In this document: positions 25,442-30,826 of the stretch, piece by piece
Layout of the letters: the number at the start of each line of letters is the position of its first letter
Position numbering within the stretch: the first letter of the stretch is position 1
DNA from: a virus
Lineage: Duplodnaviria > Heunggongvirae > Uroviricota > Caudoviricetes
Direction: 5' to 3' (one strand)
DNA length: 64,000 bases
Virus record (IMG/VR): IMGVR_UViG_3300013102_000004
Coordinates: 70,630-134,629 of that record
Translations under genes and position numbers: made by a program
The notes under the pieces: generated by a model
Database searches by the model: none
Seen by the model: the letters and a program-made list of their open reading frames with translations, nothing else
Told to the model about the DNA's origin: nothing

Positions 25442-26839
25442 CTACCCTGTTCTCTTAATGTCTACTCTCTTGCCGCTCAAAACCAAGTAGATATCATTTG
25501 TCTTTGTATCCTCTTCGATTGAACCTGCTTCGAAATTGGCACGACGCTTGCCGTCCTTTTCGACAACATCAGAGATTGGCATACCTAGGCGTCCATTTTC
25601 GTAACCTAGCTGACCATAAATCTTAAAGATTTCACCTGTGATCGCATTTGCATCCTTGGTGCTTGTCAGATTGTAAATTGCTCCGTTCTCAAACGACTGA
25701 ACGAATCCTCTACGATCCTGTGTCGCAACTGCTGTTCCGGTCGGATAGCCAAGCTTGGCTTCGTATCCCACGCGTGCGTATTCATCCCATATTGGACCGT
25801 ACAGAATTTCTTTTGCACCTGTCTTAGGACTGAAGTAGATGTGACCCTTTTTAAATCTCTGCAAGCGTCCTATGCCGTCTGGTGGTGTAATCTCGTCGGT
25901 CTCGGGGAATCCTAGAATTCCGTTCTCCCACTTCAATTCAGCCCAACGGCTACCGATGACACCATTCAATACGTAACCCTGCTTGTCAGCATCACTGTAA
26001 TAGATAGAGCCATTCTGGAACGCCTGAGCTTCACCACCATTGATCTTGATTGCGTCGGCAACTGGGTAACCCAAGAATCCGATTTCCCAACTGTTCAGTT
26101 CGAACTTTGGCCAAATATTTTTGTTAATTGTTCTAGCGCCAAAGTTTGGATGCCAGTAGATGTGACCGAACTCGTATTCCGCGAATTTTCCTACGCTGTC
26201 AGCACAAGGCAACTCGTCACCAACGGTGATCTTCTTTCCTAGCCAAGGGTTTTCACGATACTTAGCCTGAATTGCTGATTCCTTAGGCTTGTCGCCCTCG
26301 TTGTACCAGCGATTGACTTCACGTCCGAACCATGCAGCATCGAAACCTGCTGGGTCAATCTTTCCATCACGCTTATTGTAATCTCTGTGGAAAATCCAAC
26401 GATCTGCTGGAAGTCCTAAATCCTTAAGTAAAGCTGCTACAACCTTGGGGTAATTTGAGCGCTGTGCGTCTGTCCAGTCGTTGTAACCGTTTGACACGCC
26501 TTCAATTCCAATCGAGTAGTAATTTCCGTTGCCTTCTGGCGCTCCCCACATTGCAGGTCCGTAACCCGCGTGCCAACAGACACCCTGAGCGATAATATGT
26601 GGATTACCGTCTCTCTTTAGAACTAGCTGAGACAATGGACCTGGCAAATCTGATCGTCCGTCTCTAACTACTCTAATATCTCCTGACTCATTGCCACCGG
26701 CAGTATGATGCAACACTAAGAATTGTACTTTGACAATATCTCCGTGACCTCTATTACGCCAACCTGGCTCTTCTGTGTATTTGATCCCGAACTTCTGAAA
26801 AGCTTCTGGGTATCTTGTGTAATCTGCTATTTCAATCAT
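25442..26839 (-). CDS. Endolysin: Amidase_2 N-acetylmuramoyl-L-alanine amidase with LGFP repeats
   Basis: LHHTAGG, CWHAG, SIGIE, HRDY..KIDP; repeats FLGYP, ILGFP, KLGYP, RLGMP. Confidence 0.93.
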   Translation of the reverse strand: MIEIADYTRYPEAFQKFGIKYTEEPGWRNRGHGDIVKVQFLVLHHTAGGNESGDIRVVRDGRSDLPGPLSQLVLKRDGNPHIIAQGVCWHAGYGPAMWGAPEGNGNYYSIGIEGVSNGYNDWTDAQRSNYPKVVAALLKDLGLPADRWIFHRDYNKRDGKIDPAGFDAAWFGREVNRWYNEGDKPKESAIQAKYRENPWLGKKITVGDELPCADSVGKFAEYEFGHIYWHPNFGARTINKNIWPKFELNSWEIGFLGYPVADAIKINGGEAQAFQNGSIYYSDADKQGYVLNGVIGSRWAELKWENGILGFPETDEITPPDGIGRLQRFKKGHIYFSPKTGAKEILYGPIWDEYARVGYEAKLGYPTGTAVATQDRRGFVQSFENGAIYNLTSTKDANAITGEIFKIYGQLGYENGRLGMPISDVVEKDGKRRANFEAGSIEEDTKTNDIYLVLSGKRVDIKRTG

Positions 26840-26872
26840 TCCCTTTCTTTTGATTACTCTTATTATAGCAAA

Positions 26873-26921: not shown

Positions 26922-27017
26922 TTAGCCTTCGCAAGCTGTGCATTCGGAACCGTTCTCGATTGCGCAACTCTGTGTATCGAAACTAGTGTTACTCCAATCA
27001 ATGTTGAAATCGTCCAT
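26922..27017 (-). CDS. 31-aa Cys-rich peptide resembling the NrdA C-terminal redox tail (not in ORF track)
   Basis: MDDFNIDWSNTSFDTQSCAIENGSECTACEG*; AAGGAG RBS; in frame with nrdA, one codon after its TAA. Confidence 0.75.
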   Translation of the reverse strand: MDDFNIDWSNTSFDTQSCAIENGSECTACEG

Positions 27018-27020
27018 AAA

Positions 27021-28715
27021 TTATCTCTCCTTCTTTGTATTTTTAGAAGCCTGGATTCCTGCCTTGCTGCGCATGTAGTAAAGACCCTTTATGTACGGGT
27101 CAAGCATGGCTAGCTTGTGAATCTTGCTGATGTAGGCCGGAGACTCGTTAGCGTCAAAGAAAAGATTTAGCGATTGTCCCTGGTCAATAAATTTTTGTCG
27201 TTCAGATGCTTGTTCGATTATGGCCTCTTGATTAATCTCATAAGCTGTCTTGAATACTTCCTTCTCATGGTCAGACAACCAATCGACATTTTGAACCGAT
27301 CCTGAGTCATCAATTATCTCGTCAATTGTCTTCTGGTCGTACTTTCCACGTTCCTTCATAATGTCAATCAGGGTAGGGTTGATTCGTGCCATTTCTCCTG
27401 CTGCTGAGGACTGATTAAATACGTTTGCAACGATCGGCTCAATACCCTGACTGACTCCACCAACAAGTAACGCGGTGGACATTGTTGGAGCGACTGCCAT
27501 TAGGTGACTGTTACGTCTTCCCTTTGGTGCCCACTCTGCTGAACCAGCTTTTTCACCCATCCAAGACGAAGCCTCTTCTGCGTAACCTCTGATTCCAGAA
27601 AAGATAAACTTATTCAGATTTTGAGCCTCTTGCGAATCGAAAGGAATGCTCTTGGACTGCAATAGTGTGTGCCAACCCATGACGCCCAATCCAAGCGCTC
27701 TGCTCTTCTCTGTAAAACGAACTACCTTTTCCATACCCTTGACCTTGCTGCCACGATCTATCAAATCCTGAGCAATACAGTCAAGGAAAACTGTTGCGAT
27801 GAATACTAAGTCAGTACCCTTCCATTCGTCATACTTTGCTAAGTTAAGTGAACTAAGTACACAGCTAAAACTATGATCCGCGTCAGAGTGCAATGCAATC
27901 TCCGAACACAGATTAGAAGCCTTGACGCTCAATCCCTTTTCAGCATATCCGGCTGGATTCTGACGGTTCACCTTGTCAATGAACCAGAGATAACCCTTAC
28001 CTGTCACAGCGCGAGTCTTGAGAATCTTTTGGTAACGACGAATCGTATCCTTATCACCGGACTTTAGCTTGTCAATGAAATTATCTGTGATGTTCCAACC
28101 GACATTCAGCCCGTCTGGGTTGTTATAGAGATAATCAATGACTTCATCGAAATCATCGTGATCAGCCTCTAGATAGCCTGCCCAAGCGCCACGACGCGTA
28201 GAACCCTGGCTGGTGTCGTCCATATCTTGAACGAAGCCTTTGAATACCGGCAAAACTCCGTTAGCTTTTCCATTGTCGCCGTAAGCTGATCCTCGTGGGC
28301 GAATGTCGCCAAGATATCCACTAGTACCAAATCCTTGCTTTGTCAATACTGCTGATTCTAGACGTGAATCGTAGAATCCATAAATTGAATCTTCAATGTA
28401 GTTACCAGTACAGCTTACAGCCATACCGCGCTCTGTTCCTAGATTCGCAAGAACCGGAGTACTTGGACTTAGCCAACCGTTCCAGATTGCTTCAAAGAAC
28501 CTTTCTTCCCAGTCGATTTCGTCACCGTACAAGCGTACTGCTATTTCACCAGCCGCTTCGGCAATTCTTACATATCTATCTGCAAGGCTCTGCCCCGACT
28601 CAGCATACTTTAACTTAAACATCTGGTAGCCGGGTGTGATGTACCAATCAGGTACTTCTCCCTTTTCCTGAAGTTCTTTGCGTTCTGCCGAGATTTGCTC
28701 ATAAATGCTTGTCAT
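27021..28715 (-). CDS. nrdA: Class Ia ribonucleotide reductase alpha subunit (no ATP cone, no C-terminal CxxC)
   Basis: PSTP, VSC, SNLCSEI (N/C/E active site), SCVLSSLNL, APTMST, YYMRS. Confidence 0.95.
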   Translation of the reverse strand: MTSIYEQISAERKELQEKGEVPDWYITPGYQMFKLKYAESGQSLADRYVRIAEAAGEIAVRLYGDEIDWEERFFEAIWNGWLSPSTPVLANLGTERGMAVSCTGNYIEDSIYGFYDSRLESAVLTKQGFGTSGYLGDIRPRGSAYGDNGKANGVLPVFKGFVQDMDDTSQGSTRRGAWAGYLEADHDDFDEVIDYLYNNPDGLNVGWNITDNFIDKLKSGDKDTIRRYQKILKTRAVTGKGYLWFIDKVNRQNPAGYAEKGLSVKASNLCSEIALHSDADHSFSCVLSSLNLAKYDEWKGTDLVFIATVFLDCIAQDLIDRGSKVKGMEKVVRFTEKSRALGLGVMGWHTLLQSKSIPFDSQEAQNLNKFIFSGIRGYAEEASSWMGEKAGSAEWAPKGRRNSHLMAVAPTMSTALLVGGVSQGIEPIVANVFNQSSAAGEMARINPTLIDIMKERGKYDQKTIDEIIDDSGSVQNVDWLSDHEKEVFKTAYEINQEAIIEQASERQKFIDQGQSLNLFFDANESPAYISKIHKLAMLDPYIKGLYYMRSKAGIQASKNTKKER

Positions 28716-29713
28716 TAAAAAGTAAATCCTCCATCTTCTGTGTCTTCAAACGTAAATGCATTTTCATCCCAGTCTCGGTTGTACTCGGACTGCACTCCGT
28801 TGAAGAAGTCTCCGAACTGAGTGGAATTAATTCCCTTGTAGAACCATTCTGCTACTGGATTCTCATCAATCTCAAACTGGAAATTGATATCCAAGTTGTC
28901 AAGACACATATTGATACGTGACTTAACAAAAATCTCTAAGTCGTGCTGGTTCAGGCCGGGAATATCGCCCTTCTCAAAGATCATTTCAATGATTCGCTTT
29001 TCATGCTCAAATACTGCGTGGGCAGCTTCGACAATCTTCAAATCAAGAATTGCTTTTTGTGTGCTTGTCTGCTCTGATTCACTCTGCAATGTTCGGTACA
29101 ACCAAGCACCCGCTTGCGCGTGCAAGTTCTCGTCACGAACACTAAAGTTAATTCCTCTACAGACATTGTTCAACAGGTTCTTGCCCTGTGACTGAAATGA
29201 CTTCAGAAACGCAAAGCTAGAGTAAAGTACCGCACCTTCGAGCATACTGAACGTAGCCAAGCTGTAAAGCAAATCATCACTGTCTGCGGCGGCATTGACA
29301 AAATCAATACGTGCCTTCAGGTCTGGATCATCTGCATAACTAGAATAGAATTCATCTGTGTTCAGCAACATTGCTTCATTCAGCTTGTTGTAGAACGGAG
29401 CGTGGACATTGATTTCAAAGAAACCGAATGCATTGCTCATCATCTCAATATCAGGGCGTGGGAAGCTGTTCTTTACTTTACCGCCCCAATATTCGTTGCC
29501 TACTAGCAACTCATACAAAGTAAATAGCTTTAGAACTGTGATCACTCCGTGCTTTTCAGCTTCGGTCATGTTCACGCGTAAATCTTGTACATCTTTCTCA
29601 ACATTGATCTCATCTGGTGACCAGAACACGTCTCGCTGAGTCTTGGCAAACTTAACTGCCTCTGGGTAGTCAAAGGTATACGTATCCTTTGGTGTCGTAA
29701 TTCTCGGTGACAA
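28715..29713 (-). CDS. nrdB: Ribonucleotide reductase beta subunit (di-iron)
   Basis: FWSPDEI, EINVH..FY, LEG..LYSSF, RDENLH; TTG start with RBS AGGAG. Confidence 0.95.
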   Translation of the reverse strand: MSPRITTPKDTYTFDYPEAVKFAKTQRDVFWSPDEINVEKDVQDLRVNMTEAEKHGVITVLKLFTLYELLVGNEYWGGKVKNSFPRPDIEMMSNAFGFFEINVHAPFYNKLNEAMLLNTDEFYSSYADDPDLKARIDFVNAAADSDDLLYSLATFSMLEGAVLYSSFAFLKSFQSQGKNLLNNVCRGINFSVRDENLHAQAGAWLYRTLQSESEQTSTQKAILDLKIVEAAHAVFEHEKRIIEMIFEKGDIPGLNQHDLEIFVKSRINMCLDNLDINFQFEIDENPVAEWFYKGINSTQFGDFFNGVQSEYNRDWDENAFTFEDTEDGGFTF

Positions 29714-29839: not shown

Positions 29840-30826
29840 TTAGCTAAAACGCGGATCATCCACTATATGTTGGAAGGCTTCTCGTGTCAAACACAACCAG
29901 TCGTACTCTTCGTGCATCTCAAAACTATTCTTAAATGCCTTCAAAGCCTGGTTCTCAAAGTCATCGTAGCTTAGCTTGATCTTATCTACCAAATCTTCGA
30001 AATCTGGCTTGTAGACCTTGCCTGGATGCTCGTCTGGCCACGGTGATTGTACCAGTTCCGACTTGACTCCCAAATCATTTAAGTATTTGTGGTAGTGACA
30101 CCATGATTCTGTGCAAATTGTTGGAGTACCCTGAGCTAAGCTTTCCATAGGGATGAAGCCCCATCCTTCACCGTAACTTGGATATATGTTCACGTCAAAT
30201 CCATCAGTGAACCGAACCAGTTCGTCTGTTTCCATAGGCTTAGTGATCACCGACACATTTGGTAACTTGTCAGGAGATTGAACTACCCCATTCTGGTACC
30301 AGCGTACATGACTTCGTTGATACGCCTTAATTGTTAACGTAGCTTTGCTCGAATCATCCTTGAACGCCTCCCGGAAAGCTTCGAATCCCTCTTGAGTTCC
30401 TTTACGGCTAGCTGGTGCTCCCTGAATATAATATTTCAGTGGACCCGACCTCCGCTTCAATCTAGGCTTGTACATTTTCTCTATGCCGTGAGGGTATACC
30501 GTTTTGACGTTGTTGACACCGGCTGCTCTGTACACATCAGCGACCCAATCAGAGGTTGCCCAAACTTCATCGGCTGAATTGAACTTTTCAACCCAACCTT
30601 CGGGAAGTTCTGTTGACTCCCAAGGGCATAAAATTATTTGATATTGATTGTCTTTAGGGGTGAAGTAGTCAGGCTGCGCGAACGTAAATTCGACGAGTGC
30701 TAACGGAGTATTGAAATACACTTTGTGGCCAAGTTCCTTCAGAGCATTGACGATGCCCCAACCAGCTCTACCGAATCCGTTGTTCAGTGTGAAGTTGCTG
30801 TACGCAGTGTTGTAAGAAATGATCAT
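29840..30826 (-). CDS. Glycosyltransferase (GT4-like, GT-B fold)
   Basis: PWEST, YPHGI, RKG, YPSYGEGWGFIPMESLAQGTPTI (EgFG..lEA motif). Confidence 0.9.
   Translation of the reverse strand: MIISYNTAYSNFTLNNGFGRAGWGIVNALKELGHKVYFNTPLALVEFTFAQPDYFTPKDNQYQIILCPWESTELPEGWVEKFNSADEVWATSDWVADVYRAAGVNNVKTVYPHGIEKMYKPRLKRRSGPLKYYIQGAPASRKGTQEGFEAFREAFKDDSSKATLTIKAYQRSHVRWYQNGVVQSPDKLPNVSVITKPMETDELVRFTDGFDVNIYPSYGEGWGFIPMESLAQGTPTICTESWCHYHKYLNDLGVKSELVQSPWPDEHPGKVYKPDFEDLVDKIKLSYDDFENQALKAFKNSFEMHEEYDWLCLTREAFQHIVDDPRFS

Follow-up and report, generated by a model that had tools for sequence, protein, structure and literature searches.

In the genome of a tailed phage we found a class Id ribonucleotide reductase (RNR) whose redox tail has most probably been detached from the catalytic subunit NrdA to act as a non-covalent, trans-acting peptide of ~30 residues. 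The genes lie on the minus strand of a 64,000-nt stretch of DNA (hereafter, the window) from a virus of the class Caudoviricetes (IMG/VR record IMGVR_UViG_3300013102_000004, positions 70,630 to 134,629). The whole phage genome is 136 kb long with direct terminal repeats. Over the queried 651-bp nrdA-peptide stretch, it has 94.5% identity to Rhodococcus phage NiceHouse (Trinavirus, actinophage cluster CE).

The window NrdA ends in YYMRSKAGIQASKNTKKER (...QASKNTKKER), a short basic stub, and has no Cys in its last 40 residues. A single TTT codon separates its TAA stop codon from the ATG (position 27017) of a 31-codon open reading frame (ORF) in the same frame, which ends in ...CAIENGSECTACEG. 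Upon re-reading the sequence and folding it, we found the first-pass annotation of this DNA to be exact in its description of a NrdA without C-terminal Cys, an in-frame 31-amino acid (aa) ORF one codon on, an AAGGAG Shine-Dalgarno (SD) motif formed by NrdA codons, and a terminator.

Across the relatives that share this arrangement, the Cys pair has been lost from NrdA, the active-site Cys residues are kept, the tail motif is encoded by a separately initiated gene under selection, and this gene strictly co-occurs with tailless NrdA.

The window enzyme is a class Id RNR that lacks the Cys pair in NrdA

The best solved relatives of the window NrdA are the class Id alpha subunits 6DQW (E = 1e-111) and 6DQX (E = 1e-107), and those of NrdB are the class Id beta subunits 8DQ3, 6CWO, 5OLK, and 6SF4. 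In Pfam, NrdA carries the RNR barrel and all-alpha domains and has no match to the ATP-cone. Its length is the same as the median of the NrdAi clade, 564 aa (10.1101/2022.04.23.489257).

In our alignment, C102, C270 (in the motif NLCSE), and C285 of NrdA are invariant across split and fused relatives. These would be the redox pair and the thiyl-radical Cys of class I RNRs, the equivalents of E. coli C225/C439/C462. As the active-site Cys residues are retained, the disulfide should form at each turnover and must be reduced. The window enzyme thus has the features that define class I membership except for a C-terminal Cys pair in NrdA itself; the pair sits on the downstream 31-aa product.

A small ORF follows nrdA at every tailless locus

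To place the window enzyme among its relatives, we surveyed the 120 best NrdA homologs and fetched the DNA around relatives from genomes, viral contigs, and annotated phages. The first-pass annotation had given ...QASK...ECxACEG as the ending of related enzymes, and this was right for 58 of the 120 homologs, which end in a very short fused tail, ...QASK(G/D)ECxACEG. The remaining 62 are without a terminal CxxC, and all but one of them (61/62) stop a few basic residues past QASK; the exception, P0094, has an aberrant 664-aa end. The last 10 residues of NrdA have a mean charge of +2.6 in the tailless forms compared to -1.7 in the fused forms.

The same split was found in every tailless relative for which the DNA downstream of nrdA was available. 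At each of these 38 loci, nrdA is immediately followed by a small ORF that ends in C-x5-7-C-x2-C-E-G. These loci comprise five from Rhodococcus phages (NiceHouse, Weasels2 in two copies of the record, Peregrin, and Grayson), one further viral contig, and 32 from Actinomycetota, mostly Nocardioides but also Lentzea, Phycicoccus, Segeticoccus, Marmoricola, and a Nanopelagicales metagenome-assembled genome (MAG). Phage Trina, which we examined apart from the 38 loci, has the same peptide gene. Among 65 fused loci, none has a comparable separate peptide gene, and two had other downstream CxxC ORFs.

The cellular copies are arranged as nrdB-nrdA-peptide amid ordinary chromosomal genes and do not lie in prophages. 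Each of five bacterial genomes examined for other RNRs also encodes a longer one (open frame, ~950-1050 aa), which is probably a class II enzyme.

One fused locus is an oddity. In the last ~130 nt of L035, a 1616-bp contig of a Propionibacteriaceae MAG, a fused NrdA (...SSGECVACHA) is followed by an in-frame short ORF, ...MNKENLTFGECVACHA, that repeats the tail. This second tail could be an intermediate, a duplicated tail, or an assembly artifact of the contig end.

The peptides share the fused ending and have conserved additions

We compared 34 unique peptides, which range from 28 to 50 aa in length. Every one contains exactly 3 Cys and almost no Lys or Arg, and the net charge is -7 to -13. 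Upon alignment, a variable and often Thr-rich N-terminus is followed by a conserved acidic aromatic motif (D-F-N-I-D-W or L-E-F-D-F in phages, I-D-D-L-T-W-D-D-W in bacteria) and then by C-(A/S)-I-E-N-G-x-(D/E)-C-x-(A/V)-C-E-G. The window peptide has an acidic aromatic N-terminal half, the invariant third Cys at C18, and a terminal ECTACEG with C26 and C29. The fused tails share only the last seven residues of the peptide, which has gained the aromatic motif and the first Cys.

These additions led us to weigh whether the peptide is chiefly an RNR regulator or a metal-binding factor, such as an Sml1-like inhibitor or a three-Cys site that delivers or senses Mn, Fe, or Zn, and not an electron carrier. 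The third Cys and the acidic aromatic segment are superfluous for classical tail chemistry and absent in fused tails, and in the window, the peptide segment DFNIDWSNTSF is similar to EYNRDWDENAF in the NrdB tail, so that the peptide could compete with NrdB. However, the likeness to the NrdB tail fails in cellular members (NrdB ...EYNRNIGETEF compared to peptide ...IDDLTWDDW), and we dropped mimicry of the NrdB C-terminus as a general explanation. Furthermore, NrdA has lost its Cys pair but kept the active-site pair, so that a reductant relay is still needed, and the ECxACEG ending is the most strongly conserved part of the peptide. We consider a chiefly regulatory or metal-binding role unlikely.

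The NrdB tail itself also varies among these enzymes. Class Id NrdB normally ends in ...EYNR(D/N)W(D/N)E..F.W. This Trp is lost in the cellular split clade (...EYNRNIGETEFSF; NrdB loci compared, L006-L042), whose peptide has W-D-D-W, and the phages hold a Trp in both the NrdB tail (window 28718-28850) and the peptide.

To look for structure in the tail, we ran AlphaFold2 on the fusion that would result if the TAA were read as Q (39 aligned rows). The core was predicted with a mean predicted local distance difference test score (pLDDT) of 84.5, and residues 555-597 with ~34. The low values are compatible with a disordered tail but are no proof of it, and the model suggested no docked conformation of the tail. 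A complex prediction of NrdA with the peptide scored 0.07 (mark, 0.32), which weighs neither way.

Selection on the peptide gene and origin of the split

For the last 22 codons of the peptide gene, the pooled ratio of nonsynonymous to synonymous substitution rates (dN/dS) is 0.20, as computed from 34 distinct DNA sequences. Third positions are variable at 22 of 22 sites, compared to 12-13 for first and second positions. Between the window and NiceHouse, the peptide genes differ by seven synonymous and two conservative changes. Judged by these substitution patterns, the peptide is under purifying selection.

A maximum-likelihood tree was built from 96 NrdA sequences that had been trimmed by 25 residues at the C-terminus. 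All split sequences, together with one truncated row, form a single clade (Shimodaira-Hasegawa-like approximate likelihood ratio test, SH-aLRT, 99) that is sister to a small fused clade. The split clade is nested among fused class Id sequences, and the phage sequences branch at its base; therefore, one split event suffices. On this tree, the split arrangement defines one clade of actinobacterial phages and Actinomycetota.

A second alternative is that the ORF is a decaying remnant, left when a nonsense mutation cut off the tail of a NrdA that is now either inactive or a direct substrate of a small thiol or a redoxin. In its favor, small-molecule reductants have been suggested for some class II RNRs that have no C-terminal Cys (10.1101/2022.04.23.489257), and the split-form bacteria also have the longer, probably class II RNR. 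However, none of the tailless NrdA examined, be it from a phage or from one of several actinobacterial families, is without the peptide ORF beside it, and this ORF has a start codon and mostly an SD-like motif although the junctions differ. A remnant that had been shifted into another frame relative to nrdA would have lost its own reading frame, and both the dN/dS of ~0.2 and the conserved gains (the Trp motif and the third Cys) argue against decay. We regard this explanation as very unlikely.

The stop codon is genuine and the junction varies

The first-pass annotation had singled out the TAA at 27021-27023 as a position to check in reads. The stop is kept: NiceHouse, an independent isolate, has TAA-TAT-ATG at the same junction, and an independent wastewater-metagenome contig with ~10x depth over the junction keeps TAA, TTT, and ATG. 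The nrdA stop is therefore genuine and is not a sequencing or assembly error. Over the peptide ORF, the wastewater contig differs from the window by only two synonymous third-position changes (Ile20, ATC to ATT; Glu21, GAG to GAA). A soil metatranscriptome contig covers only positions 27123-27273, inside nrdA, at a depth of 2 and provides no evidence on peptide expression.

Close phage relatives alone show three types of junction. The window and NiceHouse have an in-frame TAA-NNN-ATG; in Peregrin and Grayson, the peptide start overlaps the nrdA stop as TAATG; and in Trina, a TAATAA double stop is followed by the peptide ORF 24 nt downstream in a different frame. Of the 38 loci, 10 have the peptide ORF in frame 0 with respect to nrdA, 10 in frame 1, and 18 in frame 2, and the peptide start is -4 to +92 nt from the nrdA stop. 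Each of the three stop codons is used to end nrdA in some of the loci, and every peptide ORF begins with an ATG or GTG of its own, which an SD-like motif precedes in nearly all cases. From this comparison, the in-frame layout of the window is one of several interchangeable junctions.

This variation bears on a proposal in the first-pass annotation that readthrough of the TAA joins the peptide to NrdA. By readthrough, or by another form of recoding, the 31 residues would restore a tethered tail, and the separate ORF would be only apparent. The peptide ORF is indeed in frame in the window, NiceHouse, Weasels2, and eight other loci, and only one sense codon stands between stop and ATG in the window. 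However, it is in frame at only 10 of the 38 related loci and out of frame at 28; a gap of up to 92 nt, the TAATG overlap, and the double stop with a spacer in Trina fit readthrough poorly, as does an own start codon at every ORF, and no context is conserved across the clade. Because the junctions vary in frame, gap, and stop codon, readthrough cannot be the general mechanism, and we rejected it as extremely unlikely.

The peptide gene is under-annotated

No Pfam or NCBIfam model matches the peptide family. In a database of 5.8 billion proteins, which we searched with the peptide (a 45-aa member placed first), the family corresponds to ~70 clusters, where named mostly "hypothetical protein," and 74 stand-alone database peptides share the ending of the peptide. 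An exhaustive profile search of 1.84 billion representatives returned small stand-alone proteins and three unrelated repeat proteins only, and it found no NrdA bearing the long form of the tail. We discarded the three long matches (P0196-P0198), which are TIG/PKD/lactonase repeat proteins.

Although an ORF, an SD motif, and an ATG are present, the peptide gene is unannotated in the Weasels2 record (L003/L055, 2985-3077) and uncalled in the Nocardioides potassii assembly (L132, just after 9689). The tail-peptide micro-gene is thus systematically under-annotated.

In Lentzea pudingi, the 50-aa peptide (P0188; L008:4686-4838) is named "FxLD family lantipeptide" by one public source. We take this name for a probable misannotation, to which the DFAID motif and the many Cys near the end of the peptide gave rise. 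That the peptides are in fact precursors of lanthipeptide-like modified peptides (an FxLD-type leader with a Ser/Thr/Cys-rich core) that lie next to nrdA by chance is hardly conceivable: beyond the Lentzea name, it has in its favor the resemblance of DFNID in the window and DFAID in Lentzea to the class I lanthipeptide leader box and the Ser, Thr, and three Cys of the C-terminal half, but 0 of 21 peptides match lanthipeptide NCBIfam models at E <= 10 (the sole NCBIfam match is a chance one to an epimerase), the phage and cellular neighborhoods examined contain no gene for a dehydratase, a cyclase, or LanM, the F-x-(L/I)-D box is absent in most Nocardioides copies (AIDDLTWDDW), the last seven residues are those of the fused NrdA tail, and the linkage to tailless nrdA is absolute.

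Proposed mechanism and redox partner

We hypothesize that the CxxC of the detached tail peptide would reduce the C102-C285 disulfide after each turnover by thiol-disulfide exchange and that a thioredoxin-type redoxin would then re-reduce the peptide, as for a tethered class I tail. The covalent tether would probably be replaced by docking on NrdA via the acidic aromatic segment (IDW in the window, LTWDDW in bacteria), perhaps against the basic C-terminal stub.

The suggestion in the first-pass annotation of a separate, trans-acting redox peptide held up genetically, in that the gene has its own start, is conserved and selected, and is found beside every tailless NrdA and absent from fused loci; the redox function is what we infer from these features. 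That the peptide is diffusible, as was also suggested, is not established; its gain of an acidic aromatic motif speaks for docking and not for free diffusion.

The remark in the first-pass annotation that no redoxin gene is visible concerned the window alone. When we looked for a redox partner in the complete phage genome, we found one thioredoxin-fold ORF, located outside the window (G000:C1:17248-17484, locus L131). It encodes 88 aa with a CQPC motif and matches PF00085 at 25 bits. There was no match to a glutaredoxin in the whole genome. The CQPC protein is a candidate electron donor to the peptide.

Several points weigh against a detached electron-carrying tail. Compared to a tail that was simply cut off, the peptide has a third invariant Cys and ~20 extra residues, and it may do more than, or something other than, tail chemistry. 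In the alignment of split-clade NrdA we found no conserved partner Cys, and an analysis of specificity-determining positions returned many clade-specific NrdA residues that are inseparable from shared ancestry and identified no docking surface. The presence of the additional, probably class II RNR means that the class Id enzyme is not demonstrably essential in these bacteria. Finally, we infer the translation of the peptide in vivo, its binding to NrdA, the transfer of electrons, and the roles of the Trp motif and third Cys from sequence comparison.

A covalent tether through a new NrdA Cys was also considered, and we set it aside because the split clade has no such conserved residue. At position 159, a Cys is present in 60% of the split sequences, and the window NrdA has Lys.

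A more far-reaching version, which we offer tentatively and think rather doubtful, is that the peptide is more than a cut-off tail and has become a micropeptide that carries electrons while free and exchangeable. Equipped with a third Cys and a docking motif of its own, it would cycle between redoxin and NrdA as a co-substrate-like subunit. If so, RNR activity could be set by the supply or redox state of the peptide, and the phage could run its RNR independently of host thiol systems by means of its own peptide and thioredoxin-like protein. The peptide would then be a new kind of RNR component, in that a class I enzyme would have a third subunit only 30 residues long.

Operon layout and neighboring genes

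On the minus strand of the window, the order is nrdB, nrdA, the 31-codon ORF, a strong hairpin, and lysin A (Table 1). The genes nrdB, nrdA, and that of the tail peptide form a three-gene operon for the class Id RNR, which the hairpin, as a probable intrinsic terminator, would close. A 71-nt stretch containing the hairpin (26925-26855) folds at -29.3 kcal/mol (z = -6.8), and none of 200 shuffles was equally stable. In NiceHouse, the stem is preserved by paired changes. A simple terminator scan did not list the hairpin 3′ of the peptide gene because its T-run has only 4 T.

Table 1. Features of the RNR operon and its 3′ neighbor, in window positions.
Feature	Position	Strand	Details
nrdB, radical-generating small subunit	29713..28715	-	332 aa; TTG start; C-terminus ...EYNRDWDENAFTFEDTEDGGFTF; Pfam PF00268, E = 7e-46
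nrdA, class Id (NrdAi-type) catalytic subunit	28715..27021	-	564 aa; PF02867, 7e-82; PF00317, 1e-9
Shine-Dalgarno AAGGAG of the peptide gene	27032-27027	-	Made of the last nrdA sense codons; 9 nt 5′ of the ATG
nrdA stop TAA	27023-27021	-	Also in NiceHouse and an independent metagenome contig
Putative detached redox-tail peptide gene, 31 codons	27017..26922	-	Product MDDFNIDWSNTSFDTQSCAIENGSECTACEG; stop TAA 26924-26922
Hairpin	~26907-26867	-	13-14 bp stem, UACG loop, then UUUU; from folding
Lysin A gene	26839..25442	-	3′ of the hairpin

Directly 3′ of the hairpin and 5′ of lysin A (window 26840-26870, minus strand) is a TATAAT (...UUUUGCUAUAAUAAG), and the same layout is present in NiceHouse and Trina. 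The hairpin and TATAAT may form a compact terminator-promoter junction.

Directly upstream of the RNR operon is a GT4-type glycosyltransferase-like gene (window 29840-30826, minus strand), which is annotated as a glycosyltransferase in relatives. Its weak matches include the "GT4 in conflict systems" family, under the Pfam cut-offs.

Significance

A natural clade in which the Cys pair resides on a separately encoded peptide of ~30 residues would mean that covalent tethering of the tail is dispensable. Such enzymes offer a ready-made system for the study of tail docking and electron relay, using a synthesizable peptide and its Cys variants. The split tail also explains the truncated look of these NrdA sequences in databases and draws attention to a conserved micro-gene that is often overlooked in annotation or called "hypothetical." It further suggests that some RNRs classed as tail-less are worth re-examining for nearby micro-ORFs.

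Comparison with known systems

All class I RNRs have been stated to carry the redox Cys pair in NrdA (PMC6187632). The split clade contradicts the statement that every class I enzyme bears its own redox tail. In the literature that we searched, coverage of which is incomplete, no account of a class I tail that is detached turned up, and a class I RNR with a micro-protein redox tail appears to be undescribed there.

The closest sequences are the fused class Id tails (...QASKGECxACEG) of relatives of the F. johnsoniae and A. ureae alpha subunits (6DQX, 6DQW). They share with the peptide the (E/D)-C-x-(A/V)-C-E-G terminus, the enzyme family, the nrdB-nrdA operon, and presumably the same role as an electron shuttle from redoxin to the active-site Cys pair. 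In contrast to these tails, the peptide is unattached, has its own gene, SD motif, and start, is ~20 residues longer, and carries the acidic Trp/Phe motif and the third Cys.

The CX2C tail of yeast Rnr1 reportedly acts in trans across the R1 dimer. In both cases, the tail need not share a polypeptide with the active site that it reduces; however, the yeast tail is covalently part of the neighboring alpha subunit, whereas the class Id peptide is a free gene product.

For a detached tail, the closest documented case comes from P. aeruginosa and its split class II RNR, in which NrdJb, encoded downstream of NrdJa, carries the Cys and binds NrdJa non-covalently with a dissociation constant of 54-690 nM (Crona et al. 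2015, PMC4520616). NrdJb is needed in vivo and mediates thiol-disulfide exchange (PMC4520616), and it contains folded IscU-like and zinc-finger domains (Burnim et al., 10.1101/2022.04.23.489257). As in the window, the catalytic chain has no C-terminal Cys, and the Cys pair is on a separate polypeptide encoded directly downstream. The two systems differ in that NrdJa/NrdJb is a B12-dependent class II enzyme with a folded NrdJb, whereas the window enzyme belongs to class I and the peptides of its clade are 28-50 residues long and may be disordered. The NrdJa/NrdJb split and the class Id split are independent evolutionary events.

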